Below are positions 3,287-61,687 of a stretch of DNA of 64,000 nt, piece by piece. The first letter of the stretch is position 1, and the number at the start of each line of letters is the position of its first letter. The translations under genes and the position numbers were made by a program. The DNA is from Candidatus Wolfebacteria bacterium GW2011_GWB1_47_1 (GTDB taxonomy: Bacteria > Patescibacteriota > Minisyncoccia > UBA6257 > UBA9933): NCBI GenBank assembly GCA_001029635.1, contig CP011209.1, forward strand, positions 683,969 through 747,968. The letters run 5' to 3'. Below the pieces are notes generated by a model. That model was not told where the DNA came from, ran no database searches, and saw nothing but the letters and a program-made list of their open reading frames with translations.

Positions 3287-3349
3287 GACTCGGTTCGTAG
3301 TAAATGATCTTTTTTGTAAGTATAGCATAGAATGAACAGCGACACACTC

Positions 3350-6300
3350 TTAGCCGCCTATCGTCGACCTGATAAAAATGCTGAAGTCTGAGATATCAAC
3401 CTTCCCATCATCGTTCAAGTCGACTTGCCTTCTTTTTTCGGCATCCGTCGATCCAAATCGCGTCAAGAAAATACTCCAATCCCCAATATCGACACTTCCA
3501 TTATTATTCAAGTCGGCGCGCGTCACCAAAGTACGTGTTACCGTGAACACCTTTAGCGGAGACCAATCACTTTCAATGCCATTTTTATCAACCTGCTTTA
3601 CGCGGACTACATGCCCTCCATATGCGAGTTCGCGCGTATTAACCAGGAGTCGATATGTTCCTCCACTCCCTACCGCCACCTCTGTTTCGACCAGTTGTCC
3701 ATCGATTTCCGCCTTAACCACACTGCCCGGCGCCGCCGAACCGGTAAGCCCAACATTATTGCCGATGGTCACCGTACGCGACACCAACCCCGCGGTCGGC
3801 GCGATATACAAATTCTTCTCTTCGGTCGCACGCGTCACCTTGTCCATGGTGTAGGTCTTGATCTGCGCGATCTTCCCATCTTTGTCCAAGATGGCAAGCC
3901 CAAACGATTCCAATCCGCGCAATGCGCCCGAGAAGTCTATTGTGAACGTACCATCGGCGCGCACTTCGATGTCTCGCTCAAGCGGAATGTCCTGCCCACC
4001 AACACGCGCGAAAAGCGATACGCGAGCCCCCGGATACGCCCGCCCGGTAAAGGTAACGGACGGCGCAACATATACACCGCCGCCACCTCCCCCCCCACCT
4101 ACGGATGTCTGGCGAACAAAGAACATCACATCCTGCGTCGAGGTGATCCCTAATGTCGATGTCGAACCGGTCAAGCGCTCCAGCGACAACTGCACCGTTT
4201 CAGCAACGGTATCTGAGACCGTCACAGTCCCAATGCCGTCCACTATATTTACAAGAGCCCGACCATCCAATTTCATCGGTGACGACGTGATCGTTGAAGT
4301 ACTAAATACAAGATACACATCCTCCTGTACGGTCGCATCCAATCCGCCATCAGCATCCTGTGCCTGGATGATCACGACCGTATTTTCGTTCAGTCCAGCG
4401 TCTGCCGGATTAAGAACCACATACCGATCTGCCACTACCGGAGCCGCCGTCACAATCAATGAATCCGATGCATCGGCGATGCCCGCCGCTCCATCAGCAG
4501 CCGTTGCATTATCAGATGCCGTTATATCCCATGTACCGGCTTCTTCATCGTAATACCAGAATGTCGTTGACGCGAATCCGTTCGCAAGCGTCACGAATGA
4601 AATGGAGCTTGTGCCCGTTTCGGTCGCCTGAAATCGCGCCTGCGCACCCGTTGAACTGGTGTACAGGTACACGAGATTGCTCCCCGAGGTCACTACGTTC
4701 CCATACTGATCCTTTCGCGTTACCGTATATGACGTACTCGTTCCTGCCACTATACTGGTCTGATCGGTGAGCGTGAACTGCGTCACTGTTCCTGCGGTCC
4801 AGATGATCGACGCGGTGTCGGTCACGGCTAATCCTGTTCCCTGTGTATCGGACAGCGCCAAGTTGACGGTCTCCGCTACCGTATCAGTCAACGTAATCGT
4901 TCCTTCGCCATTTACGATATCAATCAATACCTGTCCATTGGTCAGTCCGGTGCCGCTTACCGATGTCACACCCGTGACCAGTGTCACATCATTTTGATAG
5001 TTCGTGTCGATATTTCCAAAATCATCCTGCACCTGCACCGTCACCAACGAAGATGCTCCCGCTGCCAAGGTCTGCGGATCCGGTTCCGGCTCAAATACGA
5101 ACCGGGTTCCGGTCGCAACCTGCACCGATATCATATCGGATGCATCGATGATACCCGCCACTCCATCCGGCGCGGTCGCATTATCCGAGGCAGTGATCGT
5201 GTGATCTCCGCTGGTCTCTTCGTAATACCACGCACTCTGCGATGACTGGCCGCCGCCGATCGTCACGCTCGTTACCACATTGCCATTTGTTGCAGCATCA
5301 TAGAATGATGTGCCTACTCCTGCTGGATTCGCATAGAGATATGCCGTCGTATCGCCCGCTGTTACCGGGTTATTGAACTGATCCTTGCGCACCACCGTAT
5401 ATTGCACACGGCTTGCCGGGTTCATACTGGTCCGATCATTGATCGTGAACTTGGCGATCGCCGCCGGATCGATCACGATATCATCGTATCCGATCACTGC
5501 GCCCGTCTGAGTAGTCACCTGATAAGACCCTGCCACTTCGTTGTAATACCAAAACTGTGCCGAAGCATTCCCGGCATCAATCGCCACTGACGTAATTACC
5601 GAGCTTGAGGTTGAGTTGCTGCCATAAAACGTCCCCGGGGACGTCGTTGGCGTTGCCGAAATACCTACGGTTATCGAACTGCTAGTGATCTGATTATTGT
5701 ATTGATCGGTGCGCGTGACCGTGTACGCGACCAGATCTCCGGCCGTCGCATTGACCACGTTGTTCAGATTCAATTTTGCGAATGCGCCCACTCCGAACAT
5801 CACATCCTGGGTTGATGTAGCCGCCAAGCCCGTGCTCTGCGTGTCCGACAGCGACAATGTCACGGTCTCCGCTACTGTATCGCTTACCTGGGTCGTGCCA
5901 ATGCCACCTTCAAGATCTACCAATACCGGATTGGCGACCGCACTCCCCGTTACCAACAATGTCACATCTTCGGTAAAGCTCGGCACTACCTGGCCAAATT
6001 CATCCAATGCCCGCACGGTCACCGTGATCGAGGCATCCACCGTACCATCGGTCGGATCTACGATCTCAAACCGCACCGCAGTCGGTGTCACTAAAATTTC
6101 ATTTGATGCATCATTAATACCTTCATCTCCGTCCGGCGCGGTCGCATTGTCCGAGACCGTTACAGTCGTTGTTGCCGGCGTATTGCTATAGAACCAGAAA
6201 CTGGTCGTTGCATTGCCCGGTGTAAACGCGATCGCAGTGATCTCGTTACCGCCCGCATCTGTGTCATAAAACTTTGCCGTACTGGTCGGGCTTGCATACA

Positions 6301-9300
6301 TATATGCAGGCGTCGTGCTCGCGCTTACGAAGTTACCGTATTGATCCTTGCGTCCCGCAACAAATTCCTTGCGCGTATTCTGCTCCATATCACCACTATG
6401 CGTCAATGAGAACTGCGCGACCGCTCCCGGCGCAAATACCACATCCTGTGTCGAAGATGCAACATTCAGTCCGGTGCCCTGCGAATCTAATAGCGAAAGG
6501 AATACCGTTTCCGCTATGGTATTCGAAATGGTTGTTGTACCCGATCCGTTGATGATATCCACCAACGTACTGGTCGCATTTACCTGTCCACCCGTGCTCG
6601 ACGCGATTAGCGTTACATCGCTCTGATAATCGGTGATCAAGCGCCCCAGATTGTCCTGCGCCTGCACTACGACCGTGATCGGTGCGTCCACCGTACCATC
6701 GGTCGGATTGATAATCATAAATCGGGTTGCCACCGCATTGACCGCAATGGTACTGGTCGCATCGTTGATGCCCGCATTGCCATCGGGAGCCGTTCCATTG
6801 TCCGACGATGTGATCGTATAGGTGCCCGGCTCTTCATCGTAATACCATGCCGCTGTTGTACTCGCCCCGGACCCGATGATCGCTGAGGTTATCACCGTTC
6901 CATTGGTCGCGGCGTTGTAAAACACAGCCGACGATGAGGTCGATGTCGTATAGAAATAAACGGTCGTATCCGGACCACTGGTCACCGGATTACCGTACTG
7001 GTCCTTTCGTGTCGTCACAAATCCCGCACGATCTCCCACATTGAGCGTTGCCGGTCCGGCGAGCGCAAGCTGCGTGATCACACCATGCGCAAAGGTCGCC
7101 GATGTGGTCGCGCTTACATCCAAACCCGTTCCTTGTGTATCGGTCAGTGACAATGTCACGGTCTCCGCTACCGTATCCGATATGGTCGTTGTCCCTGCGC
7201 CGTTCACGATATTAACCAGTATGCTCTCCGGCGTTGCAGAGTCGCTCGCATTGAGCGTTATGTCGCTTTGATAATTAGTCACTACCGTTCCATTTTCGCG
7301 CTGCGCCTGGATCGTGGCCGTGATCGGCCCATCTACAGTGCCGCTGTACGGAGCGCCACTAAATGCAAACTTCACCGCACCGCGGGAAATGATAAATGGA
7401 GATGTCGCCGTTCCTCCGCCCGGCCCTGGATTGGTCACTTCAACGGTCGATGTTCCAAACGTTGCCAATAATGATGCCGGGATGCTCGTTTCGATGACCG
7501 TCGTCGAACTTGCCGAGATCGTCAATAACGTACCATCAAAGGTCACCGTCGTACCGCCGATAAAGTTCGTACCATCGATCGTTAACGATGTCGTAGCACT
7601 TCCTTCTTCCGCAGTATCGGGGACCAGCGAAGTAATGGTGGGCGTCTGATTTTTTCTCAGGAATGTGACACTTGTCGTTGAAAGCCCCCCACCTGGAGCC
7701 GGGTTAAATGCGGTAATGGTCGACGTGCCCGCGGTCGTCAACATTGCCGCTGGAATGGTGGCGGTTGCCGTCGTTGCATTGATAAGCGTGGTCGTTAGGT
7801 CGTCGCCATCAAAGCGGATCACTGTTGACGATACGAACCCTACTCCCGTTACGGTAATGATCGTATCCGGCGATCCGATGAACGCTTCACTTGGGTCGAC
7901 ACTAGTGACACTCGGAGTCGGGTTTCTTCGGATGAACGTTTGCCCGCCCGATGTTCCTCCGCCCGGGGTCGGATTAAACACAGTCACGGTCGATGTTCCT
8001 ACTGTCGTCAGCATTGCAGCTGGAATGGTGGCGGTCAGTTCGGTCGGGCTTACATACGTTGTTGTCAGATTGCTACCATCAAAGCGCGCGACGGATATCG
8101 CATAGAAATTAGTGCCGGTCAATGTGATCAGTGTATCCCCGCTTCCTACGTTTGCTTCAGCCGGGTCGATACTCGTCAATGTTGGCGCGCGGTAGTGGAC
8201 ATTGGTCGTGGTCGCCGCAGAGCCTCCGCCCGGTGTCGGGTTGGTGACCGTCAATGAGAATGCGCCGGTGGTCGAAGCGACCGCGGCGGGTACCGTTGCA
8301 ACTATCTCGGTCGCGCTGTTTGTCGTTGACACCAGTGTTGCTCCTGCAAACACAACCACTGAACTGCTGTAAAAATTGGTGCCGGTGATCGTAACGACCG
8401 TCTCTTCATTTACATAGATCGGATCTGGTGCGGCGGTAGTGATGGTCGGCGTCTTGTGATGCACATTGAATGTCTGCGTATTGGATGTTCCTCCGCCTGG
8501 AGTCGGGCTGAACACGGTTATCTGCACCGTATCGGTCGCGGTCGTCAGATCGCTTGCGGGAATGGTCGCTTCAAGCGTGGTCGACGATATATAGGAAGTG
8601 ACCCGGTCCGATCCATTGAATCGCACCACGGAGTCGGAGACGAAGAACGTTCCATTTACCGTCAATGTAAATTGCGCGTCGTTCACAAACTTCGTATCGG
8701 GACTGATCCCGGTCGTGGTCGGCGTCGGATTCAGTTTTGCAAATGGCCTTCCTTCGGAAGTTCCCCCTCCTGGGGTTGGCGTGAACACGGTCACAGTCGA
8801 TGTGCCTACTGTCGTCAGCATTGCAGCTGGAATGGTGGCGGTCAGTTCGGTCGGGCTTACATACGTTGTTGTCAGATTGCTACCATCAAAGCGCGCGACG
8901 GATATCGCATAGAAATTAGTGCCGGTCAATGTGATCAGTGTATCCCCGCTTCCTACGTTTGCTTCAGCCGGGTCGATACTCGTCAATGTTGGCGCGCGGT
9001 AGTGGACATTGGTCGTGGTCGCCGCAGAGCCTCCGCCCGGTGTCGGGTTGGTGACCGTCAATGAGAATGCGCCGGTGGTCGAAGCGACCGATGCTGGCAA
9101 CGTCGCCGTGATACTTGTTGAACCGGTCGTGGTGGACGACAAAGTCGTTCCCGCAAATTTCACTACGGAAGCGCCATAGAAGTTAGTGCCGGTGATCGTG
9201 AGTATCGTGGTCTCATTTACATACACCGGGTCGGGGGTGTTGGACGTGATGGTCGGCGCGCGGTAGTGGACATTGAGATTTCTTGTATCCTCACCCCCTC

Positions 9301-11563
9301 CCGGGGTCGGGTTAGTAACCTTGATCGTAGATGATCCGGTCGTGGTCACCAGCGATGCCGGAATCGTTGCCGTGATGCTCGTCGCCCCGGTTGTCGTTGA
9401 CGATACGATCGTATCGTTATAGCGAACGACCGTCACTCCATAAAAATTAGTGCCCGTGATCGTTATATTCGCGTCTTCGTTCACATAGATCGGATCCGGG
9501 GCAATATTCGTAATGGTCGGTGCGCGGTAGTGCACATTGGTCGTGGTCGCCGCACTCCCCCCGCCTGGCGTGCTATTGGTGACTGTCAACGAGAATGCGC
9601 CAGTCGAAGAAGCGACGACGGCGGGTAAGGTTGCGGTGATCAGTGTAGTTCCTGTAGTTGTAGACGATAACGTCGTTCCTGCAAATGCAACGACGGAGTT
9701 GCTGTAAAAATTGGTGCCGGTAATGGTGAGTATCGTGGTCTCATTTACATACACCGGGTCTGGGGTGTTGGACGTGATAGTCGGTGCGCGGTAGTGCACA
9801 TTGGTCGTGGTCGCCGCAGAGCCTCCACCCGGGGTCGGATTGGTGACCGTCAACGAAAACGCGCCGGTGGTAGAAGCCACGGCGGCGGGCAAGGTCGCGG
9901 TGATCGATGTCGAGCCGGTCGTAGTGGACGACAAGGTTGTCCCCGCAAATGCGACGACAGAGTTGCTGTAAAAGTTTGTGCCGGTAATGGTGAGGATCGT
10001 GGTCTCATTTACGAACACCGGGTCGGGTGTATTGGACGTAATGGTCGGAGTCCTATATTTGACGACAAACGCGGCACTCGTCGTCGACGTGCCTCCGCCC
10101 GGGGTCGGATTGGTGACCGTCACCGTTGAGGTGCCGGTGCTTGCAAGGTCTGTCGTCGTCACGGTCATATCGAGCGTGGTCGAATTAACAAACGCGGTTG
10201 TGCGCGCACTCCCATTCCAGTTTGCCACGGAACCGGAAACAAACTGTTGTCCGGTCACCGTCACGGTCGTTGTCGCGTCCCCGATGAACGCTTCATTCGG
10301 AGAAAGCGTTGTGACTACTGGCACGCGGTTGCGCACTACAAAACTCTGTCCACTCGAAGTACCTCCTCCGGGGGTCGGGTTAAAAACGGTAATCGTTGAA
10401 GTTCCCGCGGTCGTCAGGTCGGACGACGGGACTGTAATTTCCAATGTTGTGGAATTGATGAACGAGGTCATACGATCTGAATCATTCCAGCGCGCGACCG
10501 AGGACGCAACAAATCCCGAACCAGTCAAGGTTACGGTCGTTGTCCCGCTTTGTACCTCGGTCGATGTCGGACTAATGGCCGTCAACACCGGGGTCGGATT
10601 TTTTACCGTGATCGTCGGATGTGACGCGATGTTCGTCAGCGCGCCGGAATCATCGAAGCGCGATGTTGTTGTTGCAGTATATGTTCCAAAGACCGACGGG
10701 ACTGTCACGCCGCTTGTTCCACCACCATCACCATATGTCATTGTTGCAGTCCCTAGCGCTGCAAGTTGCAAAAAACGTGCGTTGATCGAGCTTGACGGAA
10801 ATGTCAAAGAACCCGGACCTAATACTATATCGTCCGCGTACACCGTTATGTTATCAAGTGCGGCATTGTTCGCGATACGAAATCCATAACTAACAACCGA
10901 TGTGCGCGTGGTCACTCCGAAATTGATCGTTACGTATGTCCATGTATTCGCAGTGATCGCCGGGATATTAATGGATTCGATCGGGCTCGCTAAATTTGCG
11001 CTGTTGTCGTAGCTGAATTGCAATCTATTTGCCGCAATATCCACATCCGTCCTGATCCAAAATCCGACCGTAGTGTACGACGCCCAATTTTGCGACGTGA
11101 TATTTTTGTACCACACATCCCCATTTGATTCATTGCCATTGATACAGTGGATTGATGCCGCTCCTTCGTGTTTCACCCCTGTATCCGCCGTAGGCGCCCC
11201 TGCGGCACACGCGCTTCCAGCACTCCACCCCGTCGCGCTATCCATATCATCTATCACGTCTGCAATCGTGCCGGTCGTGCTAACCGTCGTATATCCGGCC
11301 GTGCCCGCCGTCCCTTGCGGAGCACTGAAGCCTGCCGGCATTGCAATATTAATACCGCCCGAATTCATAGTCTCGGCGGCAGTAAAGGTAAACGTAAACG
11401 TATTTCCGGTCGAACTCACGTCCGTACTCGTCGGCGTGACGGCATTTGTCCCCGAGCCGTCGGCAGCGTACGCAGGCGTAACGCCAAAAATTACGCTGCC
11501 GATCATTAATCCGACTAAAGTGATTACGCTAAATAACGACACACCTTTTTTTTGGGACATCAT
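3350..11563 (-). CDS. giant secreted dockerin-bearing adhesin (2737 aa) with IPT/TIG-like and Big-like repeats
   Basis: N-terminal signal peptide. About ten ~90-aa repeats (P.ITS..PDPV.VNETT.LTITGTNFY...PGGG) resemble the IPT/TIG fold. Later repeats (DYQSDVTL...IVNG.GT..ISDTVAETV.LSL.D.QGTGL) are Big-like. The last ~60 aa carry two DLNNNGSVDIGDWSIF / DLNDDGKVDISDFSIF segments, a duplicated dockerin type-I Ca-binding repeat. Confidence 0.8.
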   Translation of the reverse strand: MMSQKKGVSLFSVITLVGLMIGSVIFGVTPAYAADGSGTNAVTPTSTDVSSTGNTFTFTFTAAETMNSGGINIAMPAGFSAPQGTAGTAGYTTVSTTGTIADVIDDMDSATGWSAGSACAAGAPTADTGVKHEGAASIHCINGNESNGDVWYKNITSQNWASYTTVGFWIRTDVDIAANRLQFSYDNSANLASPIESINIPAITANTWTYVTINFGVTTRTSVVSYGFRIANNAALDNITVYADDIVLGPGSLTFPSSSINARFLQLAALGTATMTYGDGGGTSGVTVPSVFGTYTATTTSRFDDSGALTNIASHPTITVKNPTPVLTAISPTSTEVQSGTTTVTLTGSGFVASSVARWNDSDRMTSFINSTTLEITVPSSDLTTAGTSTITVFNPTPGGGTSSGQSFVVRNRVPVVTTLSPNEAFIGDATTTVTVTGQQFVSGSVANWNGSARTTAFVNSTTLDMTVTTTDLASTGTSTVTVTNPTPGGGTSTTSAAFVVKYRTPTITSNTPDPVFVNETTILTITGTNFYSNSVVAFAGTTLSSTTTGSTSITATLPAAVASTTGAFSLTVTNPTPGGGSAATTTNVHYRAPTITSNTPDPVYVNETTILTITGTNFYSNSVVAFAGTTLSSTTTGTTLITATLPAVVASSTGAFSLTVTNSTPGGGSAATTTNVHYRAPTITNIAPDPIYVNEDANITITGTNFYGVTVVRYNDTIVSSTTTGATSITATIPASLVTTTGSSTIKVTNPTPGGGEDTRNLNVHYRAPTITSNTPDPVYVNETTILTITGTNFYGASVVKFAGTTLSSTTTGSTSITATLPASVASTTGAFSLTVTNPTPGGGSAATTTNVHYRAPTLTSIDPAEANVGSGDTLITLTGTNFYAISVARFDGSNLTTTYVSPTELTATIPAAMLTTVGTSTVTVFTPTPGGGTSEGRPFAKLNPTPTTTGISPDTKFVNDAQFTLTVNGTFFVSDSVVRFNGSDRVTSYISSTTLEATIPASDLTTATDTVQITVFSPTPGGGTSNTQTFNVHHKTPTITTAAPDPIYVNEETVVTITGTNFYSSSVVVFAGATLVSTTNSATEIVATVPAAVASTTGAFSLTVTNPTPGGGSAATTTNVHYRAPTLTSIDPAEANVGSGDTLITLTGTNFYAISVARFDGSNLTTTYVSPTELTATIPAAMLTTVGTSTVTVFNPTPGGGTSGGQTFIRRNPTPSVTSVDPSEAFIGSPDTIITVTGVGFVSSTVIRFDGDDLTTTLINATTATATIPAAMLTTAGTSTITAFNPAPGGGLSTTSVTFLRKNQTPTITSLVPDTAEEGSATTSLTIDGTNFIGGTTVTFDGTLLTISASSTTVIETSIPASLLATFGTSTVEVTNPGPGGGTATSPFIISRGAVKFAFSGAPYSGTVDGPITATIQAQRENGTVVTNYQSDITLNASDSATPESILVNIVNGAGTTTISDTVAETVTLSLTDTQGTGLDVSATTSATFAHGVITQLALAGPATLNVGDRAGFVTTRKDQYGNPVTSGPDTTVYFYTTSTSSSAVFYNAATNGTVITSAIIGSGASTTAAWYYDEEPGTYTITSSDNGTAPDGNAGINDATSTIAVNAVATRFMIINPTDGTVDAPITVVVQAQDNLGRLITDYQSDVTLIASSTGGQVNATSTLVDIINGSGTTTISNTIAETVFLSLLDSQGTGLNVASSTQDVVFAPGAVAQFSLTHSGDMEQNTRKEFVAGRKDQYGNFVSASTTPAYMYASPTSTAKFYDTDAGGNEITAIAFTPGNATTSFWFYSNTPATTTVTVSDNATAPDGDEGINDASNEILVTPTAVRFEIVDPTDGTVDASITVTVRALDEFGQVVPSFTEDVTLLVTGSAVANPVLVDLEGGIGTTQVSDTVAETVTLSLSDTQSTGLAATSTQDVMFGVGAFAKLNLNNVVNATAGDLVAYTVTRTDQYNNQITSSSITVGISATPTTSPGTFYGSNSTSSSVITSVAIDAGNASAQFWYYNEVAGSYQVTTQTGAVIGYDDIVIDPAAIAKFTINDRTSMNPASRVQYTVVRKDQFNNPVTAGDTTAYLYANPAGVGTSFYDAATNGNVVTSVTIGGGQSSQSAWYYEETSGDHTITASDNATAPDGVAGIIDASDMISVQVATGTRFVFEPEPDPQTLAAGASSLVTVQVQDDFGNIDTNYQNDVTLVTGVTSVSGTGLTNGQVLIDIVNGEGTITLTDTVAETVNLALSDTQGTGLAVTDTASIIWTAGTVTQFTLTDQTSIVAGTSTSYTVTRKDQYGNVVTSGSNLVYLYTSSTGAQARFQATETGTSSISFVTLANGFASTTFWYYDEEAGTWDITASDNATAADGAAGIADASDSLIVTAAPVVADRYVVLNPADAGLNENTVVIIQAQDADGGLDATVQEDVYLVFSTSTITSSPMKLDGRALVNIVDGIGTVTVSDTVAETVQLSLERLTGSTSTLGITSTQDVMFFVRQTSVGGGGGGGGVYVAPSVTFTGRAYPGARVSLFARVGGQDIPLERDIEVRADGTFTIDFSGALRGLESFGLAILDKDGKIAQIKTYTMDKVTRATEEKNLYIAPTAGLVSRTVTIGNNVGLTGSAAPGSVVKAEIDGQLVETEVAVGSGGTYRLLVNTRELAYGGHVVRVKQVDKNGIESDWSPLKVFTVTRTLVTRADLNNNGSVDIGDWSIFLTRFGSTDAEKRRQVDLNDDGKVDISDFSIFIRSTIGG
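7998..8283. repeat. intragenic perfect direct repeat, copy 1 (286 bp, period 807 bp)
   Basis: The DNA at 7998-8283 is identical to 8805-9090. The ORF-track shadow proteins 7940..8257 / 8456..9064 and 7665..8105 / 8598..8912 end in identical peptides. Confidence 0.85.
8805..9090. repeat. intragenic perfect direct repeat, copy 2
   Basis: See copy 1. Both copies encode the same IPT-like module (APTLTSIDPAEANVGSGDTLITLTGTNFYAISVARFDGSNLTTTYVSPTELTATIPAAMLTTVGTSTVTVF). Confidence 0.85.
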
Positions 11564-14555: not shown

Positions 14556-15180
14556 GGATATCATCATTCCCGTCGATGCTACCACCGAATTACCGGGCAT
14601 ACTTACTATTCCGGAGTATGCGACCGGCATCGTCTTATTCGCGCACGGGAGCGGGAGTAGTCGCTTAAGCCCGCGCAATACATTTGTCGCGACCGAACTC
14701 AATAACGCCAGTATCGCAACACTACTAATAGACCTATTAACCGAAGACGAGGATTCTGTTTATGAAACCCGCTTCGATATCGACTTACTCACCCAACGTC
14801 TCGGTGTAGTGGCGCAATGGCTCTCCAAAAACGAACAGACGCAACATCTCCCACTCGGCCTTTTTGGCGCGAGTACGGGAGCGGCTTCAGCGCTCAATCT
14901 TGCTGTTTCGCAACCGAACCTTATTCACGCCGTCGTGTCACGCGGCGGACGACCTGATATGAGCTTGGCCAGCTTACCGCTTGTTCAAACGCCAACATTA
15001 TTGATCGTTGGCGGCAATGATACTGTTGTTACTGACCTCAATCAGCAGGCATATGAACAGCTCCTCTGTGAAAAAGAGATTGCTATTATTCCCGGCGCAA
15101 CCCACCTATTCGAAGAACCTGGCGCGCTCGAGCAAGTTTCCGAACATGCAATCCGGTGGTTTATAAAATATTTAAAATAA
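14556..15180 (+). CDS. alpha/beta hydrolase (dienelactone hydrolase-like)
   Basis: Has the G-A-S-T-G nucleophile elbow (GxSxG), the HG oxyanion motif (FAHGSG) and a C-terminal PGATHLF His region. Start at MDIIIP. Confidence 0.65.
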
Positions 15181-26214: not shown

Positions 26215-26300
26215 CTCTTCCTCCCTGGTTGTAAAAAATAATCCCTCGTGGAGATCCATCTTGGATTATTTAAAGCTATTATCATATCCCTGTCAAATCA

Positions 26301-26590
26301 TACTCAACCAACGCATATTTCGGACAAAAGATTAGCGTCATAGCAGGCGATACTATTTGCCACCACATTCACCCTTCCCGGTTCTTGGGAAAAGACATGC
26401 GGGCGGAAACATACACCATAGTAACGGAACATGGTTGTCATCCCGTGCTCCGACACGGGATCCAGGTTCACAACCCTAAAACTATTTTTCCACAACAATG
26501 CTGGATACCGGCCTCCGCCGATATGACAATGTAACCGGAGCCCTATTAGGGTATCGTAAATTACTTTGGCCGAAATGTGCGTTGGTTATA
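26301..26590. mobile_element. MITE-like non-autonomous element, copy A (290 bp)
   Basis: Terminal inverted repeats CCAACGCATATTTCGGACAA (26308-26327) and TTGGCCGAAATGTGCGTTGG (26566-26585). Flanked by the 7-bp direct duplication CAAATCA (26294-26300 and 26591-26597). Internal hairpins (ATCCCGTG/CACGGGAT). No coding capacity. Confidence 0.7.
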
Positions 26591-26594
26591 CAAA

Positions 26595-27884
26595 TCATCG
26601 CAGATAGATCGTATGCGTCAGATATCCGGTAATATATTCGGTATTCAAGCGGTTTGCCTTATCCTCTTCTATCTTTCTAATCAGATCCATAAGAAACAAG
26701 TCTACATCCTTTTCGTCATGATAGTCCGTCAAATTCCGCTTGTTAAAATAGCTGATCAGCGCGTCTATAATTTTTTTATAAAATACGGGATCGCTCATTC
26801 CTGTCGATATCAAATACAGCAATACCATATATGCCGGCGATGCCTTCGCTGTGGCAAGTGCGTCCAATTCCATTACCATCGAACCAAGTATCGGATGTGT
26901 TGCGTCACCCTTTATAAGAGCATAATACATGCCGGACTTTGCCACAATCTCATCAAATATAAGCTTCGGATCCCGCATGATTAATGCCTCATATATCTTT
27001 ACCAGATTTGCCTTCGTTGCTTTCTCAATCGTATTAATCTTTATTTCCGGCCTGAATAAATGAAACGCATTATAGTATTGCCTCAAAAATCTCTCCTGAA
27101 TTGTGTGATTTACTACGTTATCTAAAAATATATTCCATCCTATGAATGCTTCATCAATCTCGACGCCTTTTCGCTCGAGTTCAGACAACATCTTGTTTTT
27201 GATCAGATCGCCTGCCGCCAACGGCACGCCACGGTCATTTAGCCCTTCAAACAACATGAACGCATCCGCGTGCGAACTTACTTCGATCATTACCACGAGA
27301 ATACTATCCACCCAGGTCATCAGTTTCTGCAGTTCTTCCATGTTATACCCCTTCAGTCGTCCCAGAAAATAGTTATATGCCTTATGAATCTTCCGTACTT
27401 TGCTTCCTTTTGACTCAGTCCCAATTTTAAGTATCCCCATTCCTGCCAACAATGCCTCGTAGTCGGCGAAATTATCGTGTTGCTGCGATAATACTACCCG
27501 TGTCTGTATCGGCGACCCCTCTTGAATTAACCGACTCTGTATTATATGCAACACGTCATCTGCCGACCCGATTTGATCTTCGGAGCGCTTTTGTATGCTC
27601 GTATACAATGCACAGAACAAGAGTGAAATTGTTGCGAGTCGCTGCTGTCCATCGACTACTTCCAATTGGCGCATCCCAATCGCCGACGCATCATCATTTT
27701 TTACACATAAGATCGAGCCAATAAAATTACCATCACCGTTTCCCTCCACCATATCATCAAACAATATCTCCCAATTCTCCCGTGACCAAATATACTCCCG
27801 TTGAAACTTAGGTATCACATAACGAATATTTCCTCCTTCGCGAAATAATTCTGCGATTGTATAATGATTTGTATTGTAGATCAT
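26595..27884 (-). CDS. stand-alone DUF262 (ParB/Srx-like, GmrSD N-terminal domain) protein
   Basis: YVIPKFQREYIW and VVDGQQRLATISLL are the two DUF262 hallmark motifs. No C-terminal DUF1524/HNH motif is seen. Confidence 0.75.
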   Translation of the reverse strand: MIYNTNHYTIAELFREGGNIRYVIPKFQREYIWSRENWEILFDDMVEGNGDGNFIGSILCVKNDDASAIGMRQLEVVDGQQRLATISLLFCALYTSIQKRSEDQIGSADDVLHIIQSRLIQEGSPIQTRVVLSQQHDNFADYEALLAGMGILKIGTESKGSKVRKIHKAYNYFLGRLKGYNMEELQKLMTWVDSILVVMIEVSSHADAFMLFEGLNDRGVPLAAGDLIKNKMLSELERKGVEIDEAFIGWNIFLDNVVNHTIQERFLRQYYNAFHLFRPEIKINTIEKATKANLVKIYEALIMRDPKLIFDEIVAKSGMYYALIKGDATHPILGSMVMELDALATAKASPAYMVLLYLISTGMSDPVFYKKIIDALISYFNKRNLTDYHDEKDVDLFLMDLIRKIEEDKANRLNTEYITGYLTHTIYLR

Positions 27885-39495: not shown

Positions 39496-41028
39496 TCAGT
39501 ACGCAGATTGTGCAAGCGTTTGAAACATCGCTTCCGTTGATGTCGAGGTGTTCCCCGCGGCATCCCCGGACGATACGACATAATAATATGTCGTACTCGA
39601 AGTAAGTCCACTCAATAAGAAATCATGATCGAATAGAGGTGTCTCATTGCTTGCTGATGGAGCCACCGTGGTAACCACTGGTGTCGAAGTGCTGTACCAC
39701 AACTTGCCGGTTGCCTGTTCATTTGTAGTCCATACAATACGCGAAGCCGAACTTGTCGTGCTTGTCGCAGCAATCCCGGAAATAGCCGGTGCGGTCGTAT
39801 CGAGTATTGCGGCCGTTATGAACGAGTACTGGCTCGATGTTGCCGTGTTGCCCGCACCATCGGCCGACACTACCATGTAATAATACGTGGTATTTGCCGA
39901 CAAGCCCGAAAGGGTCAAATCATGCCCCGATACCAATGCCGAAGAACTCGACGATACTCCGTTTGCGGTCGTAACCGGTGTAGAGGTACCGTACCAGGCG
40001 ACGCTTGTTGCCGGTTCGTTGGTTGTCCACTGCACATGCGATCCGTTGGCGGTCGTGCTCGCCGTCAATACATTCGAAATAATCGGCGTGGTCGTATCCG
40101 GTATCAACAATGTCGTAAACGAACGCTGACTCGACGTTGCCGTATTTCCTTTGACATCAGCCGATGCCACAATATAGTAATAGGTCGTACTTGCGGAAAG
40201 CCCCGAGAGTACCAACTCGTGATCGCGAACTAGCGTCGTGGAACTTATCGTCAACCCGTTTCCGATGGAAACCGAGGTTGCCGTTCCATACCAGATGACG
40301 CTTGTTGCCGGTTCGTTGGTTTCCCATTCGATTTTCACACTGTTTGCTGCTATGTTTTTTATTTCCACATCGGAAATCTTCGGAGCGGTTGTATCAGGAG
40401 TTGTCGTCGCCAACCCAAGCTTCGCCGCTATCCCCGGTGGCAACGTCTGGCATACCGATACGATCGGTGCCACTCCTTCCATCTTGCGCAGCCATCCCGG
40501 CGCGATCAGATGTCCTGGTGGCACGATTGCACAAATGGTCTTGACTCCATTTCTTGTTTCCACGGTGACCGGATTCTTCTCGAGTTGTTCCCGAATCTTC
40601 TCGAGTGTTTTTGGTCCAACGTTTCCAACCTGGTCCAGTTTATACAATTTCTGGAACCGTTTCACCGCTTGCGCGGTCAACTTCCCGTAGTAGCCGGTGA
40701 TGCGACCCTCAGGGTAAACACTTACATCTGCTGCCAAAATAGCCTGAAGCAGTTTTACATCATCTCCCGATGATCCTTCCCTTAATTGTTTAATGAGCTT
40801 TAACGTATCCTGCACATCACCTGTCGTTGTTACAACCTGCTGCTGCGCCTGGCGCAATACCTGTAACTGCGCATTTAAACTTTCGATCTGCTTTTGCAAA
40901 TTCTGAATCAACGCCTGCAATGCCATGGCCGGTGTGGTCGTCGCCGTTTGCGCAGACACAACGAACACATTTCCAAATATGAGCCCGACGACCACTATGG
41001 CCGTCAAAGAACGTTTCATGTTTTTCAT
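39496..41028 (-). CDS. secreted protein with peptidoglycan-binding domain and three fibronectin type III repeats
   Basis: Signal peptide, coiled-coil. SGDDVKLLQAILAAD...GYYGKLTAQAVKRFQ matches PG_binding_1. Three ~95-aa repeats (TTAP.IS....T.....W.TNEPATS..WYGT). Confidence 0.7.
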   Translation of the reverse strand: MKNMKRSLTAIVVVGLIFGNVFVVSAQTATTTPAMALQALIQNLQKQIESLNAQLQVLRQAQQQVVTTTGDVQDTLKLIKQLREGSSGDDVKLLQAILAADVSVYPEGRITGYYGKLTAQAVKRFQKLYKLDQVGNVGPKTLEKIREQLEKNPVTVETRNGVKTICAIVPPGHLIAPGWLRKMEGVAPIVSVCQTLPPGIAAKLGLATTTPDTTAPKISDVEIKNIAANSVKIEWETNEPATSVIWYGTATSVSIGNGLTISSTTLVRDHELVLSGLSASTTYYYIVASADVKGNTATSSQRSFTTLLIPDTTTPIISNVLTASTTANGSHVQWTTNEPATSVAWYGTSTPVTTANGVSSSSSALVSGHDLTLSGLSANTTYYYMVVSADGAGNTATSSQYSFITAAILDTTAPAISGIAATSTTSSASRIVWTTNEQATGKLWYSTSTPVVTTVAPSASNETPLFDHDFLLSGLTSSTTYYYVVSSGDAAGNTSTSTEAMFQTLAQSAY

Positions 41029-50261: not shown

Positions 50262-50349
50262 AACACCCTCCTTCCTGTCTTACGCCCGTATGCAGTTGGT
50301 AGTTAGCTATCTCATTAATACCAATACTTACTGACTTCGTCAAACAATG

Positions 50350-50521
50350 TATAACGAACGCACATTTCGGACAACAGAAGACATTTATGTGCTGTTGCGG
50401 AAAAAGTGTGTGTCATCCCGGCCTTCGCCGGTATGACAATTCGGTCAATGCGTCTATTTGACGCATTGATTATTCCCATGGAATTATATACTTTTTGTCC
50501 GAAATGTGCGTTGGCGGAGTA
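50350..50521. mobile_element. MITE-like non-autonomous element, copy B (172 bp, same family as copy A, opposite orientation)
   Basis: Terminal inverted repeats AACGCACATTTCGGACAA (50357-50374) and TTGTCCGAAATGTGCGTTGG (50495-50514). Internal hairpin TGTCATCCCGGC/GCCGGTATGACA shared with copy A. Flanking AACAA-type duplication is imperfect. Confidence 0.65.
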
Positions 50522-51295: not shown

Positions 51296-53062
51296 TTATT
51301 CAATGCCAATCATCCGATACAAGATATGTACCATTCGATCCAATAGCGGCATAACTTTCCCCGATGAGGTTTCCGTCTTGGTTTCAGTCGGTAATACATA
51401 CGTGCCGTCCGCTGGCGGTTGTGTCATTTGCTCGCCCGGCATCGGCTGATACTGCTGATAATCAGCGGGGGGCATTTTCCCTTCTGTCGGGTATGTTTGA
51501 ATACCCTCCTTGTATATCTGCTGCCCTTCCATCCCTGACTGCTGAATCGGCACACCACATTCCTGCGGATGATTTTGACAGTACACTCTGCACTCTTCAG
51601 GACTCGTACAACCTCCCGGGCCCATCATCCGCTGCTGTTCCTGTATAGGTATCATCAGTTCCTTATACTCTTCCTTGCGAATGCCTTCGGGTATCATTTG
51701 CCCGCTCGTCGAAAACGATTCGTAATTCCTCACGGGAAGTTGTTGTGGCGTCCGTTGCTGTTGTCCATACTGTTCAAAACAACTCCGCATTTTCCCTTCG
51801 ATCTCTGGCGTCGGCCGGAATGTTCCCGTTTTTATTTGCTCGGCCACATCTTCCCCTGTCGAATCTTTCAAACACCGCGCAACCTCGCTCGGCATTTGAT
51901 TCGCATTTATCATCGGACGCTCAACGAAAGGCATTTGGCCCTCTCCTTGTCCCTGTCGAGGCTCTCCACCTTGCCCTTTAAATTCCTCTCTTCGGAAATC
52001 ATCTTGCTGCATTTGGCCTTCCTGCGAGCGCATCGCGCTCTCGAAGCATTTCTGCATCGTATCGCCAATCTCCATCGACGGCATGGCGGTTCCGTTCTTC
52101 AATTTCTCAATACGCTCGCTTCCCAAAGCCTCATTCAAGCACTGCTGAACCTCCGGCGGCGCCTGATTGAATCCTTGCATCATCTGTTGCTTACCTTCTT
52201 CCATTCGCTTCAGATCCCCCTCCTTTACTAATCCATACTCCTTGGCAAAATTGAAACATGTCTCCTGATTGGTCTGGTTTCCGCAAAATGCGTCACACTC
52301 TTCCTTACCTCGGCATCCACCCGGACCCTTACCGCCCGTCTTGCGCGCCATCTGCACTTCCTCCGGCTTCATAAAACCTGCCGCTTCGGCAAATGCGATA
52401 CATTCTTCAACATGACTTTCCTCGCTGCAATATACATCACACTCTTCCTTACCTCGGCACGCAGGAGGTTTGATGCCGCTCTTGATCGCGCTCAACACCT
52501 TCTTTGCTTCTACGAGCTCTTTTTCCTTCATGAAGCCGGCTGCTTCGGCAAATGTCATACATTCTTCCATATGATCTACTTGCGAACAATACGCATCGCA
52601 CGATTTTTTGTTCTTGCACGCGGGCGGCTTCACTCCGCGCTGAATCGCCGATTGTATCTTCTTTGCCTCCTCCAACTCCTGCGCCGGCATTAGGCCGTTC
52701 TTTTCGGCGAATGCCACGCATTCATTAATATGACTTATGTCATCACAGAATGTTTTACACTCTTCCTTACCTCGGCATCCACCCGGACCCTTCGCTCCGG
52801 CTGCTATGAATTTCTCCGCCGTTTCGACTTCCCGCGTCGACATCAACTTATTCTTCTTTGCGAACGCAATACATGCCTGGATATTGTCCGGCTTATCGCA
52901 ATATGTCTTGCAAGCTGCTTTATTTTTACAATTATCCAGTTCCTCAACGGGATATTGCACGTTTGAAATATTTTGAGCAGTCGCCGATTGTATTAGGGTA
53001 AAAGAAAATACCACCGAGAAGGCAATGATCGTCAAGCTGAGATACTGTTGTGTATGTTTCAT
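51296..53062 (-). CDS. secreted cysteine-rich repeat protein (six C-x5-C-x3-C-x8-C modules)
   Basis: Signal peptide. Repeated ~45-aa modules (C.(G/N)K..C..(Y/F)C........EC..FAE..G.M...E...A.K) plus a Q/M/P-rich low-complexity segment. Confidence 0.55.
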   Translation of the reverse strand: MKHTQQYLSLTIIAFSVVFSFTLIQSATAQNISNVQYPVEELDNCKNKAACKTYCDKPDNIQACIAFAKKNKLMSTREVETAEKFIAAGAKGPGGCRGKEECKTFCDDISHINECVAFAEKNGLMPAQELEEAKKIQSAIQRGVKPPACKNKKSCDAYCSQVDHMEECMTFAEAAGFMKEKELVEAKKVLSAIKSGIKPPACRGKEECDVYCSEESHVEECIAFAEAAGFMKPEEVQMARKTGGKGPGGCRGKEECDAFCGNQTNQETCFNFAKEYGLVKEGDLKRMEEGKQQMMQGFNQAPPEVQQCLNEALGSERIEKLKNGTAMPSMEIGDTMQKCFESAMRSQEGQMQQDDFRREEFKGQGGEPRQGQGEGQMPFVERPMINANQMPSEVARCLKDSTGEDVAEQIKTGTFRPTPEIEGKMRSCFEQYGQQQRTPQQLPVRNYESFSTSGQMIPEGIRKEEYKELMIPIQEQQRMMGPGGCTSPEECRVYCQNHPQECGVPIQQSGMEGQQIYKEGIQTYPTEGKMPPADYQQYQPMPGEQMTQPPADGTYVLPTETKTETSSGKVMPLLDRMVHILYRMIGIE

Positions 53063-56778: not shown

Positions 56779-58371
56779 TTACTGTTTTGCCTTAAGCTGC
56801 TCCACGAGCTGCTTCATTATCTCAAGTAGCTGCGTCTGTAATGTTGCTATCTGTGCGCGAAGCGCATCACCACTTGCTGTACTTACTCCCAAGACCTGAC
56901 CGCCTTGCACTTTGTTCAGCTCCGCCCGCGTGAGCGAACCGACAAAACCTGAGGCCGGGTTGATGTTGTGCGCCTTCTGGTATGCAATAACAGCATTCTT
57001 CGTAACCTGCCCGAAGTATCCCGTGGCTGAAAGATTAAAGAATCCTTCCTTTGCCAATACATTCTGCAATTCGGTCACCGTATTGCCAGTCGAACCGATT
57101 GTAAGATTCTCAGAGAAGGCAAATGTTTCAACACCAAGCACCTGCCCAGCGGGCTTTTCGGTAATGGCAGGCTTTGCCGCGTTTACTACAGTGACCGGGG
57201 TCTCTACAACTGTCGACACCACAGCAGGAGCCGTTGTTACTACTGGTTGCCCATACGATCCGTAATACGTATAAGAACCTCCGCCTCCTCCTCCGCTAAC
57301 GACTACTACGGGAGCCGGTGCTGCGACATTAACTGTCCTCGTGCTCGTTGCTCCGTTTCCGGCAAGGTCACTGACCACATAGGTCACAAGATATGTTCCA
57401 GCAACGGTCGTGTTGACCGTGCTTGTAGTTACAATCCTAGCTGTAATATCCCCATCAATATTATCTGAAGACGTTGCCCCGGCATCCGTGTAAGTTCCTC
57501 CCACGGTCATATCGATCGGATTTGAACCAAGGAGGGAAATGGTCGGCGCGGTGGTGTCGGCCGGCGCCGTTGCCATGATCGTGATCATCACGTTGGTGAC
57601 GTTGTTGCTTGTATCGGTCAAGGTGCCCGATACGGTAAGCGATCCTCCCGCAAGGGTCTGGCCCAGTTCAGTCGCAAGGATGTTGTAGCCAAACAATCCT
57701 GCCGTTGTGAGGACATTGGCTCCTGCGACAAGCTCGATCGAAGGTAGCGGCTGCGAGGTGATCTGCAGCGTTGCCGCTTCGGAAACGGTGATACTTCCTG
57801 CTGTTGCCAAGTCGGTATCGGTGGCTTCAAATAAATTGAGGGCGATGCCGCTGTCCGTAACAGTGCCGGTCTTGTTGGCGAATGAGATCGCGGAAATGGT
57901 CGGCGCGGTGGTGTCGGCCGGCGCCGTTGCCATGATCGTGATCATCACGTCAGTGACGTTGTTGCTTGTATCGGTCAAGGTGCCCGATACGGTAAGCGAT
58001 CCTCCCGCAAGGGTCTGGCCCAGTTCAGTCGCAAGGATGTTGTAGCCAAACAATCCTGCCGTTGTGAGGACATTGGCTCCTGCGACAAGCTCGATCGAAG
58101 GTAGCGGCTGCGAGGTGATCTGCAGCGTTGCCGCTTCGGAAACGGTGATACTTCCTGCTGTTGCCAAGTCGGCATCGGTGGCTTCAAATAAATTGAGGGC
58201 GATGCCGCTGTCCGTAACAGTGCCGGTCTTGTTGGCAAATGAGATCGCGGAAATGGTCGGCGCGGTGGTGTCGGCTTCAGCCATTGCCGAATTGATCGGC
58301 AATGCCGAACTCGCAGTGCCTATGAGAGCTACTAATATAAGAACCTGAAACAAGGACTTTATTTTTGACAT
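56779..58371 (-). CDS. secreted repeat protein with Ig-like (DUF5011-like) domain, Gly6 tract and C-terminal peptidoglycan-binding domain
   Basis: Signal peptide. Two near-identical 119-aa repeats. DNIDGDITARIV...TYLVTYVVSDLAGN is Ig-like. GNTVTELQNVLAKEGFF...GYFGQVTKNAVIAYQ matches PG_binding_1. C-terminal coiled coil. Confidence 0.6.
   Translation of the reverse strand: MSKIKSLFQVLILVALIGTASSALPINSAMAEADTTAPTISAISFANKTGTVTDSGIALNLFEATDADLATAGSITVSEAATLQITSQPLPSIELVAGANVLTTAGLFGYNILATELGQTLAGGSLTVSGTLTDTSNNVTDVMITIMATAPADTTAPTISAISFANKTGTVTDSGIALNLFEATDTDLATAGSITVSEAATLQITSQPLPSIELVAGANVLTTAGLFGYNILATELGQTLAGGSLTVSGTLTDTSNNVTNVMITIMATAPADTTAPTISLLGSNPIDMTVGGTYTDAGATSSDNIDGDITARIVTTSTVNTTVAGTYLVTYVVSDLAGNGATSTRTVNVAAPAPVVVVSGGGGGGSYTYYGSYGQPVVTTAPAVVSTVVETPVTVVNAAKPAITEKPAGQVLGVETFAFSENLTIGSTGNTVTELQNVLAKEGFFNLSATGYFGQVTKNAVIAYQKAHNINPASGFVGSLTRAELNKVQGGQVLGVSTASGDALRAQIATLQTQLLEIMKQLVEQLKAKQ
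57562..58275. repeat. in-frame tandem duplication, 2 x 357 bp (near-perfect, 2 aa differences)
   Basis: ORF-track shadow peptides 57618..57830 vs 57975..58238 and 57707..58045 vs 58064..58348 are identical at a 357-bp offset. Confidence 0.8.
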
Positions 58372-58774
58372 AGGATTATTTAGTTAATTAATTTACTCGC
58401 ACAGTGTTGCCATATTATTTGTTTAGATCGGCAATACTCAAACACACTAAAAAACTGATTCATATCAGTCAATATGCTTCGGCGATACGAATAACCATCG
58501 ACACCCGGGCTTATCTCTCCCCAAAAACTTATCTTCTTCCTCTTCTTCTATTCCCTCTGGCCGACTAGATCGTTTCTTACAGTCGCTTTCTTCTCTGTGC
58601 ATCTCAACTACTATAGGTAGCTTGGTCCATAATTTTGACTTTGTCAACTTTTTACCTACCAGTAGGTAGGTGCCTGAAAATGAACCGCGGTCTCTTATTC
58701 GTGGTTGGTTAACCCAACTCAAATAATCTTCCACTTTATCTCTTTTGGTTTTTCCGCATTCTCCTGTATCATAT

Positions 58775-59101
58775 ATGAATATGACACTTATTTATGGAAT
58801 CGATACCACGCAGCCGATCACACCACGTATGGTGCGCGATGCGATCATCGAATGCTTTCATCAAGCGCACGACGAAGAACTAAGAAACAGAACAGTAGAT
58901 GAACAAGTTAACCGGTCATTTTGCGCGGCTATTGTCGAAAAGGCATTCCTTGATATCGGTGCCGATTTTCAAAATCCCACAAAAGAAGATCTCCTTCGAG
59001 TCATCGAGCAGCTTGCCGTTTTTACCATACAATTCCGAGATCCATTAATTGTCGACCGCCATATAGCGGAAATACGACAACTCATCGATAAACTCCCCTA
59101 A
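58775..59101 (+). CDS. hypothetical protein
   Basis: ORF in the AT-rich island. Start uncertain (58745, 58775 or 58781). Confidence 0.4.
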   Translation: MNMTLIYGIDTTQPITPRMVRDAIIECFHQAHDEELRNRTVDEQVNRSFCAAIVEKAFLDIGADFQNPTKEDLLRVIEQLAVFTIQFRDPLIVDRHIAEIRQLIDKLP

Positions 59102-59150
59102 GTAGAAACGGGGGTCAGATACCACTATTTTAGAAAATGTTCGCATTGCT

Positions 59151-60053
59151 CTATCCTCTCTTCAGATAGACTTTAACAAAAGCGCTTTTTAATTCAGCTG
59201 CTTTAGCTGATAAACTATCGGCATTACCAGTCTTAGCTAGTACTAGCACTTCTTCAAGCCTTGCTCGAATTGCTTGGATTTCACTATCGTTAGCCTCCGC
59301 CTCCACTGCCTTTAATTTATCACTTACCCCAGGATAGACATTTATGACGCCGGCCAAGTCTTTTGCGTCAGCTTTTGCAATTATTTCTTCCATTGCGTCA
59401 TGAAAATCGACTAACGATACCGCGAGCATGGAAAATCCATTGCGCTTCAAAATATCCTGGAAAATCGGACGCACCTGTTCAAAATTTATGTGCGCCTCCT
59501 GTAGATCTCCATCCTTAACATCTTCTTCAAGTCCTGTAATAATATCTGACACTTTTACTAGATCGGCATTGAATTGACTATCTTTTTTCAATACATACGG
59601 ATGAAATTTTTGATATTTATTATTGAATAGCGTGAATTCAGAAACCAACTTAGTATAGTTATCCAATGCTTCAACTCTCTTATCTTGCCCCGTATAAAAT
59701 AGCGTTTGCTTATAATAGTTATTCATCCTATTATAATCCTCAAGAAAAAATTTCTTTGTGAAAAAATTACTATAATAACTACCAGCAACTGCAATCACGA
59801 CAAATATCACAATGAATAACCCTAGGACTACTTTAGAAACTTTCTTATTATCTTGTTTTTCCGTATTTATCCCTAATACCTTATACAGACCACAAAAACC
59901 TGTTCCAGCAGTTATAAGCATTGCCGCTGCCATCACGTAGAAAACTACTTGCCCAGTACCACTAAACCAGAACAGCGCAATGATAAATAATATCTCGGCT
60001 AGAATGACTCTCGCTAATCGATCGAGGATATTTTCGTTTGGGATAATTTTCAT
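59151..60053 (-). CDS. membrane protein with N-terminal DUF2892 (YgaP-like) domain
   Basis: RLARVILAEILFIIALFWF...AAAMLITAGTGFCGLYKVLGINT gives two TM helices with the G.C..Y motif of DUF2892. A ~200-aa C-terminal soluble region has no recognised domain. Confidence 0.5.
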   Translation of the reverse strand: MKIIPNENILDRLARVILAEILFIIALFWFSGTGQVVFYVMAAAMLITAGTGFCGLYKVLGINTEKQDNKKVSKVVLGLFIVIFVVIAVAGSYYSNFFTKKFFLEDYNRMNNYYKQTLFYTGQDKRVEALDNYTKLVSEFTLFNNKYQKFHPYVLKKDSQFNADLVKVSDIITGLEEDVKDGDLQEAHINFEQVRPIFQDILKRNGFSMLAVSLVDFHDAMEEIIAKADAKDLAGVINVYPGVSDKLKAVEAEANDSEIQAIRARLEEVLVLAKTGNADSLSAKAAELKSAFVKVYLKRG

Positions 60054-60184
60054 ATGCTATAAGTATATTCTTATATTTATCTCAAATAAATAGGCGCCCA
60101 CTATTCCTCAAAATACGTCGAAGGCGAATGTATTTTTTGCTCCGCCCAATGAGCGACGTTAGAGCCTCATTTTCTCTACATAAT

Positions 60185-60215
60185 TTATAAAAACCGCCCT
60201 CATTACTGAGAGCGG
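60185..60215 (-). terminator. rho-independent terminator
   Basis: CCGCCCTC-ATTACT-GAGAGCGG (one mismatch) with a U-run on the minus strand. Confidence 0.5.
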
Positions 60216-60238
60216 CTGCGTGATTTTAAATCAGTTCT

Positions 60239-60894: not shown

Positions 60895-60947
60895 ACCCGC
60901 AAAACAAAAAGCAAAAATACGATCCATGCGGACCGTATTTTTGCTTT
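60895..60947 (-). terminator. strong minus-strand intrinsic terminator with no annotated gene feeding it (possible sRNA 3' end)
   Basis: 14-bp stem AAAGCAAAAATACG / CGTATTTTTGCTTT with a 12-nt loop, followed on the minus strand by TTTTGTTTTG. Confidence 0.5.
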
Positions 60948-61666: not shown

Positions 61667-61687
61667 AATTGTTAAAAGTCTGTAAAA

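Follow-up and report, generated by a model that had tools for sequence, protein, structure and literature searches.

Is the repeat that occurs twice in a 64,000-nucleotide stretch of the Candidatus Wolfebacteria bacterium GW2011_GWB1_47_1 genome (contig CP011209.1, positions 683,969 to 747,968; hereafter the window, in whose own numbering positions are given) a mobile element, and if so of what kind? A first-pass annotation of the window had proposed a family resembling miniature inverted-repeat transposable elements (MITEs), with two members, here called copies A and B. Our analysis upholds that proposal: the repeat is a discrete noncoding element with terminal inverted repeats (TIRs) and target-site duplications (TSDs), and a third copy, C, lies at an unrelated locus in the same genome. 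We consider it probable that A, B, and C form a small family of nonautonomous DNA transposons of the MITE type in one ~0.98 Mb genome of Candidatus Wolfebacteria, which belong to the Parcubacteria of the candidate phyla radiation (CPR). In such a family, a transposase encoded elsewhere would bind the 28-nt ends and act in trans, insertion via a 5-bp staggered cut would yield the TSD of an A/T-rich target, and the hairpins found inside the element would be passengers that promote internal rearrangement.

The ends define the family. A 20-bp TIR consensus had been described as common to A and B, and we scanned for it (CCAACGCACATTTCGGACAA, with up to three mismatches allowed) across the window and 100 dinucleotide-preserving shuffles of the window. 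The real sequence gave four matches with zero or one mismatch each, on the plus strand at 26308-26327 and 50355-50374 and on the minus strand at 26566-26585 and 50495-50514, and the shuffles gave none, which confirms the shared consensus. Similarity extends beyond this 20-nt core, as a repeat finder paired the TACTC-type ends of A and B over 29 nt (90% match) and their TGTATAAC-type ends over 27 nt (93% match); the asymmetry of the outer ends reported earlier is thus real and conserved between the two copies. Within each copy, a TIR core of 18-23 nt is perfect or nearly perfect, with full ends of 27-29 nt. Judged by these asymmetric left and right ends, the plus-strand reading of A is equivalent to the minus-strand reading of B.

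The same TIR query, run over the JGI metagenomes, returned one true match, on a 1,152-bp contig that breaks off inside the element, where the initial 99 nt of an A-type copy adjoin an unrelated flank. The HD-like protein adjoining this fragment led to a 247-kb contig (L019) holding the full copy C at L019:10765-11157. The three copies measure 292 bp (A), 174 bp (B), and 393 bp (C). C and the window belong to one genome: the ParB and PGK proteins from the C locus each have an identical counterpart on the 984,447-bp Wolfebacteria contig, and the 633-kb JGI contig Ga0209212_1000002 carries the C locus at 610-617 kb and the window at about 223-287 kb, a separation of ~330-390 kb. C had at first been assigned to another Parcubacteria species, on the basis that its neighbor, protein P0002, occurred on one contig only, and horizontal transfer between two species was considered; the ParB and PGK look-ups together with the contig coordinates placed C in the same genome, and that idea was dropped.

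Comparison of A with C fixes where the element begins and ends. The two are 99.4% identical over 165 nt and 94.9% identical over 157 nt, and their alignment contains five substitutions and a single 101-nt indel, with about 98% identity outside the indel. Identity begins exactly at TACTC and stops exactly at GTTATACA, the flanks being unrelated, and these limits set the boundaries at 26301-26592 for A and 50348-50521 for B. They also settle the length of the TSD. The heptamer CAAATCA is literally present on both sides of A, at 26294-26300 and 26591-26597, and had been read as a perfect 7-bp duplication; however, because A/C identity reaches ...GTTATACA, the terminal CA belongs to the element, and the TSD is therefore 5 bp (AATCA). 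The repeat looks 7 bp long because the left flank happens to have CA next to this duplication. B has a perfect 5-bp duplication of its own, AACAA, which had been overlooked. A TA duplication of the IS630/mariner type was considered and rejected, as each of the three copies would then need a coincidental second TACA outside it, while the 5-bp model fits. We take the combination of a 5-bp TSD with a TGT...ACA-type end to be most like the retroviral-integrase-like DDE group (IS3/IS481, Tn7, Mu, Tn402).

As the first-pass annotation had stated, no transposase is encoded inside the copies. Their open reading frames (ORFs) reach at most 82 aa and gave no Pfam match at E<=1, and the longest, an 82-aa JGI gene call across B, retrieved only itself among 5.8 billion proteins, hence no further copies came to light by way of proteins. 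In its size, its TIRs, its fixed-length TSD, its lack of coding sequence, and its presence at several loci with sharp boundaries, the element is a MITE by structural definition. Two supporting features of MITEs, a known autonomous partner and demonstrated polymorphism, are missing.

Other bacterial MITEs, namely the Correia element (CREE) of Neisseria, RUP of Streptococcus pneumoniae, and Nezha of cyanobacteria, resemble the Wolfebacteria element in their size (170-390 bp), ~28-nt TIRs, TSDs, and lack of coding capacity, as well as in their intergenic sites near promoters or terminators, their hairpin potential, and the occurrence of subfamilies with only the ends in common. No sequence similarity to them was found in a comparison made only through Rfam, phage, and plasmid searches, and the Wolfebacteria element differs in its very low copy number (three known) and in its ~1 Mb CPR host. 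The Correia element itself was ruled out on its TSD and end sequences, as it uses a TA duplication where the Wolfebacteria element uses 5 bp. The BOX elements of Streptococcus pneumoniae have a modular boxA-boxB(n)-boxC organization. We take their likeness to the present family to lie in conserved ends that enclose an internal unit present in varying number, presumably with no sequence relation and, in BOX, without a clear TIR and TSD signature.

Several results weigh against a transposon family, and most of them concern its copy number, its partner, and its mobility. The portion of the genome that was read amounts to ~100 kb of ~984 kb, and the collections scanned did not return the window's own copies A and B, so that they seem to lack the contig carrying the window. 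Within this scope, three copies are known, too few to demonstrate ongoing activity, and the high genome-wide copy number that two copies in 64 kb had been thought to imply was not borne out: the scans added C alone, and the ~8 kb past either window edge (L025, L027) contained no further copy. The TIR scan gave five matches in GTDB species representatives, all of them chance, eight in the JGI metagenomes (seven chance matches and copy C), and none in IMG/VR; chance matches were single and without the outer ends, and several fell in coding sequence, such as an FG-GAP-like gene in Nitrospira. Plasmid and phage blastn searches likewise returned no match to the element. A full-length insertion sequence (IS) with the same TIRs, suggested earlier as the autonomous partner, was found in none of these collections, nor was a transposase carrying these ends, and no transposase domain was present among the examined window ORFs or in the precomputed Pfam annotation of the fetched loci (~100 kb). 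The TSD of C is imperfect (TTATC/TTAAT, 3/5).

Empty-site alleles, whose presence in related genomes would have documented mobility, were likewise not found among the assemblies and relatives retrieved. The retrieved assemblies (JGI 3300025309 contig Ga0209212_1000002, GCA_003453235.1, and Rifle-type groundwater assemblies in ENA) are 99.9-100% identical to the window and represent one strain, among which no empty site or presence-absence polymorphism was seen; variant P0122 is from the same strain, with the element present. A chimeric query joining the deacetylase and DUF6629 proteins found no relatives above 46% identity, the nearest homologs of the flanking genes being 35-46% identical, and relatives of the gene adjoining C (88-89% identical) have another gene downstream and are nonsyntenic. 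The empty sites that we reconstructed read CCCTGTCAAATCATCGCAGATAG for A and GACTTCGTCAAACAAATAAAAAACATATC for B.

Much of this would also suit copies that are fossils, the immobile terminal remnants of some larger IS or transposable prophage that has decayed, with A and C related by an old duplication. The want of an autonomous partner in any collection scanned, the mere three copies, the lack of a clean duplication at C, and the uniformity of the assemblies all favor such an origin, but the near identity of A and C outside their indel argues for a recent event, and perfect duplications have been kept at both A and B. We find this alternative unlikely; it differs from a MITE family only in whether the family is currently active.

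Returning to the transposon family, we examined where its members lie relative to genes. All three copies are intergenic, at three unrelated loci. Directly upstream of A is a minus-strand gene (26595-27884) for a GmrSD_N/DUF262 protein with a type IV restriction-like N-terminal domain, and the right TSD of A includes the TGA stop codon of this gene (26595-26597), so that its reading frame remained intact after the insertion. A and B had both been placed ~90 bp upstream of a minus-strand gene. For B the distance is 86 nt, to an ATG preceded by a good Shine-Dalgarno sequence; for A, upstream of the polysaccharide deacetylase gene, it is 86 nt only when counted to an internal ATG at 26214, with GGAGG upstream and a hydrophobic N-terminus, and 41 nt to the annotated ATG at 26259. 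The deacetylase likely starts at the internal ATG. Both copies are indeed gene-proximal, as described earlier, though they present opposite ends to their downstream genes. At the gene-proximal junctions, which read TGATT/TGACAGG in A and TTGTT/TGACGAAG in B, the two spacers, read from element to gene, open with TTTGAC equally far from the site of insertion, and one possibility is a shared target preference for an A/T-rich pentamer adjoining TTGAC.

Such junctions could also be taken to mean that selection keeps the copies at promoters as cis-regulatory or structured-RNA modules, with inverted repeats that fold into a functional stem in RNA or serve as a palindromic site for a protein. TTGAC(A/G) abuts both A and B 86 nt upstream of a start codon (in A the likely internal one), the TACTCAA end of A supplies a TTGAGT hexamer 18 nt from GATAAT, and the predicted structures are very stable against shuffled sequences (z = -9.3 for B, -4.4 for A, and -6.1 for C). 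Nevertheless, A and B turn opposite ends to their genes, promoter scans were at chance level, the interior of B is unlike that of A and C, and C lies where two genes converge, between their terminators and away from any promoter. Nor does an Rfam family correspond to the element, as there were no matches at the gathering threshold in the window, nothing around B, and sub-threshold noise only around C. We judge this explanation very improbable. A consistent outward promoter was rejected on the same grounds of opposed ends and chance-level scans, and a regulatory effect of the copies on expression is unproven.

The neighborhood of C has some features of its own. A perfect 40-nt palindrome, GCATTACTTTTATCTGACGATCGTCAGATAAAAGTAATGC, at L019:10692-10731 separates C from the terminator of the HD-like gene and gave rise to the only sub-threshold Rfam noise. 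Contigs are broken or gapped at C, as expected of a repeat: one (L014) ends in the element and another (L031) has NN over the left half of C. In GCA_001003425.1, a 119-nt deletion lies inside C (L029:3863 vs L030:3863-3982) without an obvious flanking repeat and, like the gap in L031, may be an assembly effect; L029 also differs in length within the OMP-decarboxylase gene.

Inside the ends, A and B have in common an inner hairpin motif, GTCATCCCG...ATGACAAT, located at 26435-26465 and 26501-26530 in A and at 50412-50440 in B. Save for this one hairpin, the interior of B is unrelated to those of A and C, and the family comprises two subfamilies (A/C and B) sharing only the ends, as would be expected if the ends alone are needed by the transposase. 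The internal hairpins reported by the first-pass annotation are therefore present in both copies, but they are not private to the element: on their sequence, they appear to be a separate and known class of repeat, as members or close relatives of the NTS/SRM/dRS3 hairpins. The published search pattern for Ssn-related motifs (SRM), HGTCWYN(0-2)YYVSBRHN(0-5)WNVSBRGN(0-2)RNCYNB (PMC11893778), matches A at window 26436-26465, C at L019 10900-10929, and a solo hairpin at L019 11167-11194, compared with a mean of 0.33 matches in shuffles of the window; the remaining hairpins (that of B, the right halves, and C unit 2) fail the strict pattern. The solo hairpin, on the minus strand ~10 nt to the right of C (TGTCATTCCCGCGAAGGCGGGAATCCAC), agrees with the Neisseria Transformation Sequence (NTS) consensus CGTCATTCCCGCGMAVGCGGGAATCYRG at 26 of 28 positions and includes a perfect dRS3 (ATTCCC-N8-GGGAAT). 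One hairpin is present in B, two in A, and four in C, and altogether ~9, strict or degenerate, occur in the ~100 kb read. Further hairpins outside TIR elements were seen at L019 ~14575-14612 (degenerate) and on a related contig at L020:538-622, where a hairpin-spacer-hairpin unit fills the ParA-ParB spacer, a spacer of only 3 nt in L019.

In A and C, the hairpins are organized as ~95-nt units, one in A and two in tandem in C, each consisting of two inverted hairpins around a variable spacer of ~35 nt. The single unit of A equals the left hairpin of C unit 1 joined to the rest of C unit 2, and the 101-nt A/C indel has a hairpin copy at either limit, which implies that recombination between hairpins remodels the element; such recombination best explains the indel. 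The hairpin of B is oriented opposite to those of A and C relative to the outer ends, which fits an independent acquisition. This organization recalls neisserial intergenic mosaic elements (NIMEs), in which inverted 20-bp dRS3 repeats (ATTCCC-N8-GGGAAT) surround an RS segment of 19-214 bp in a dRS3-RS-dRS3 arrangement (PMC1797815). The units of A and C are like NIMEs in having two inverted hairpins flanking a variable spacer, in varying in number (1 vs 2) through a hairpin-bounded indel, and in mixing with other repeats. They differ in the small size of their arrays, which have one or two units and lie within a transposon-like element where NIMEs form long arrays on the chromosome, and in having diverged hairpin arms (ATCCCGTG...CACGGGAT).

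Hairpins of this class are not confined to the Wolfebacteria genome. A scan of IMG/VR with 19 nt of the hairpin retrieved 12 viral contigs (L033-L044) of 44-71% GC, and in all 12 the match extends to a 30-nt consensus, CTGGATTCCSGCCTTCGCSGGAATGACAAT. The viral hairpins are intergenic, often 10-35 nt upstream of a ribosome-binding site and ATG and often preceded by heptamer repeats of the GTGAATA type, and two of the viral contigs contain inverted hairpin pairs (for example L036:8449-8690, and L034 at ~3292-3365 in minus-strand numbering). The exact dRS3 motif occurs only in the solo hairpin next to C and in the viral copies, the arms within A and C having diverged. Searching the literature for the sequence of the hairpin turned up no report. 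NTS/SRM hairpins are described as targets of Ssn GIY-YIG single-stranded DNA (ssDNA) nucleases (PMC11893778), and a hairpin of the Wolfebacteria genome has the same oriented flanks, GTCAT...ATCCAG. Here, by comparison, the hairpins are passengers in a TIR element, several are degenerate, and no ssnA (GIY-YIG_unchar_3) homolog was seen in the ~100 kb; the passages of the survey that were consulted make no mention of Patescibacteria, nor of CPR hosts or viral contigs. PF01541 was absent from the precomputed Pfam annotation of the ~100 kb, GIY-YIG queries, a weak test, gave no match there, and the fetched stretches of the viral contigs contained no GIY-YIG gene.

These hairpins raise a further alternative, in which the copies are NIME/BIME-like mosaics built around NTS/SRM hairpins and spread or remodeled by an Ssn-type GIY-YIG nuclease, a RAYT/IS200-like enzyme, or an IS110-like recombinase, rather than by a DDE transposase that binds TIRs. 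NTS/SRM-like hairpins are found in every copy, with a canonical solo hairpin close to the right end of C and two hairpin copies at the limits of the A/C indel; the class is widespread, with hairpin-spacer-hairpin architecture in A, C, L020, L034, and L036; and published work connects hairpins of this kind with Ssn nucleases and, for Neisseria, with a phage recombinase of the IS110 type. What the copies conserve, however, is the outer pair of 28-nt TIRs with perfect 5-bp duplications at A and B, a signature of transposition by staggered cutting that neither ssDNA cleavage at hairpins nor site-specific recombination would leave, whereas the number and orientation of the hairpins vary and B is otherwise unlike A and C. 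The ~100 kb also held no GIY-YIG or Y1-transposase gene, a weak test. A hairpin-driven origin thus seems to us unlikely, and we continue to favor a MITE family with hairpin passengers. The coordinates of the element and its associated features in the window are collected in Table 1.

Table 1. Features of copies A and B, and of related hairpins and hexamers, in the window
Feature	Start	End	Strand	Basis
Solo degenerate NTS/dRS3-like hairpin TGTCATTCCTGCAGAGGCGGGAATGTGC, intergenic, outside TIR elements	11641	11668	-	6 mismatches to NTS consensus; ATTCCCGC-CTCT-GCAGGAAT
TTGACA hexamer (-35-like), gene-proximal side of A; first T is last TSD base	26291	26296	-	Read directly
Left 5-bp TSD of A (AATCA)	26296	26300	.	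Read directly; boundary from A/C alignment
Copy A, 292 bp, from TACTC end to GTTATACA end	26301	26592	+	TIR matches, A/C alignment, folding
TACTC-type TIR of A	26301	26329	+	29 nt, 90% match to B 50493-50521; core match
Nested NIME-like unit in A: SRM/NTS-like hairpin 26436-26465, ~35-nt spacer, degenerate inverted partner 26501-26530	26435	26530	+	SRM pattern; unit alignment
TGTATAAC-type TIR of A	26564	26592	-	27 nt, 93% match to B 50348-50374; core match
Right 5-bp TSD of A (AATCA)	26593	26597	.	Read directly
TTGACG hexamer at B, then 17-nt spacer and TGgTATTAA; 86 nt upstream of ATG 50261	50338	50343	-	Read directly; unflagged by strict scan
Left 5-bp TSD of B (AACAA)	50343	50347	.	Read directly
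Copy B, 174 bp, from TACTC end to GTTATACA end	50348	50521	-	TIR matches; folding
Solo degenerate NTS-like hairpin in B (GTCATCCCGGCCTTCGCCGGTATGACAAT)	50412	50440	+	Right half 18/21 identical to solo hairpin L019:11167-11194
Second hairpin of B (CAATGCGTC-TATTT-GACGCATTG), absent from A and C	50446	50468	.	Read directly; folding
Right 5-bp TSD of B (AACAA)	50522	50526	.	Read directly

Other features were noted in the window and its surroundings. The right end of the window (~58000-64000) and the ~8 kb past its edge (L025:1-10000) form a low-GC block (0.35-0.42) with a 767-aa DUF87 ATPase, a 549-aa large serine recombinase (Resolvase+Recombinase), and many small unannotated ORFs; the block probably represents a phage that has integrated, or an integrative element of another kind. 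Long repeats are found in three minus-strand genes. A 2,737-aa ORF (3350-11563) has numerous tandem repeats, diverged from one another and ~264-270 nt long, with Big_13/TSP3-type neighbors, and these repeats break assemblies, several contigs ending there (L027). Tandem repeats of 357 nt, 99% identical, occupy 57535-58290 within a 530-aa ORF (56779-58371), and related 297-nt repeats lie at 39778-40411 within an fn3/purple-acid-phosphatase-like ORF (39496-41028). Two genes upstream of B on the minus strand (at higher coordinates), a 588-aa protein without a Pfam match (51296-53062) consists of a series of Cys-rich modules (C..C...C.YC...H..EC..FA) and, after them, a tail rich in Q, E, and P.

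A bolder scenario would make the element recently active and mobilized in trans from outside the cell lineage, by a transposable Mu/Tn7-like phage or by the host of the presumed episymbiont. In that case it would land preferentially just upstream of -35-like TTGAC hexamers and serve as a vehicle for NTS/SRM hairpins, which Ssn-type ssDNA nucleases target, spreading them among phages and the genomes of CPR bacteria. We give this scenario little credence.

In conclusion, the Wolfebacteria element is an ordinary MITE-type repeat that leaves current concepts unchanged. The reduced genomes of CPR bacteria are believed to contain few mobile elements, and our search of the full-text literature found no report of MITEs in CPR bacteria or Parcubacteria; a three-copy family with defined ends and TSDs offers a handle on transposition in CPR bacteria. 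The occurrence of NTS/dRS3-like hairpins within the element, as solo copies in the same genome, and in 12 unrelated viral contigs, taken together with the published survey (PMC11893778), suggests that a hairpin class recently linked to Ssn ssDNA nucleases is more widely distributed.

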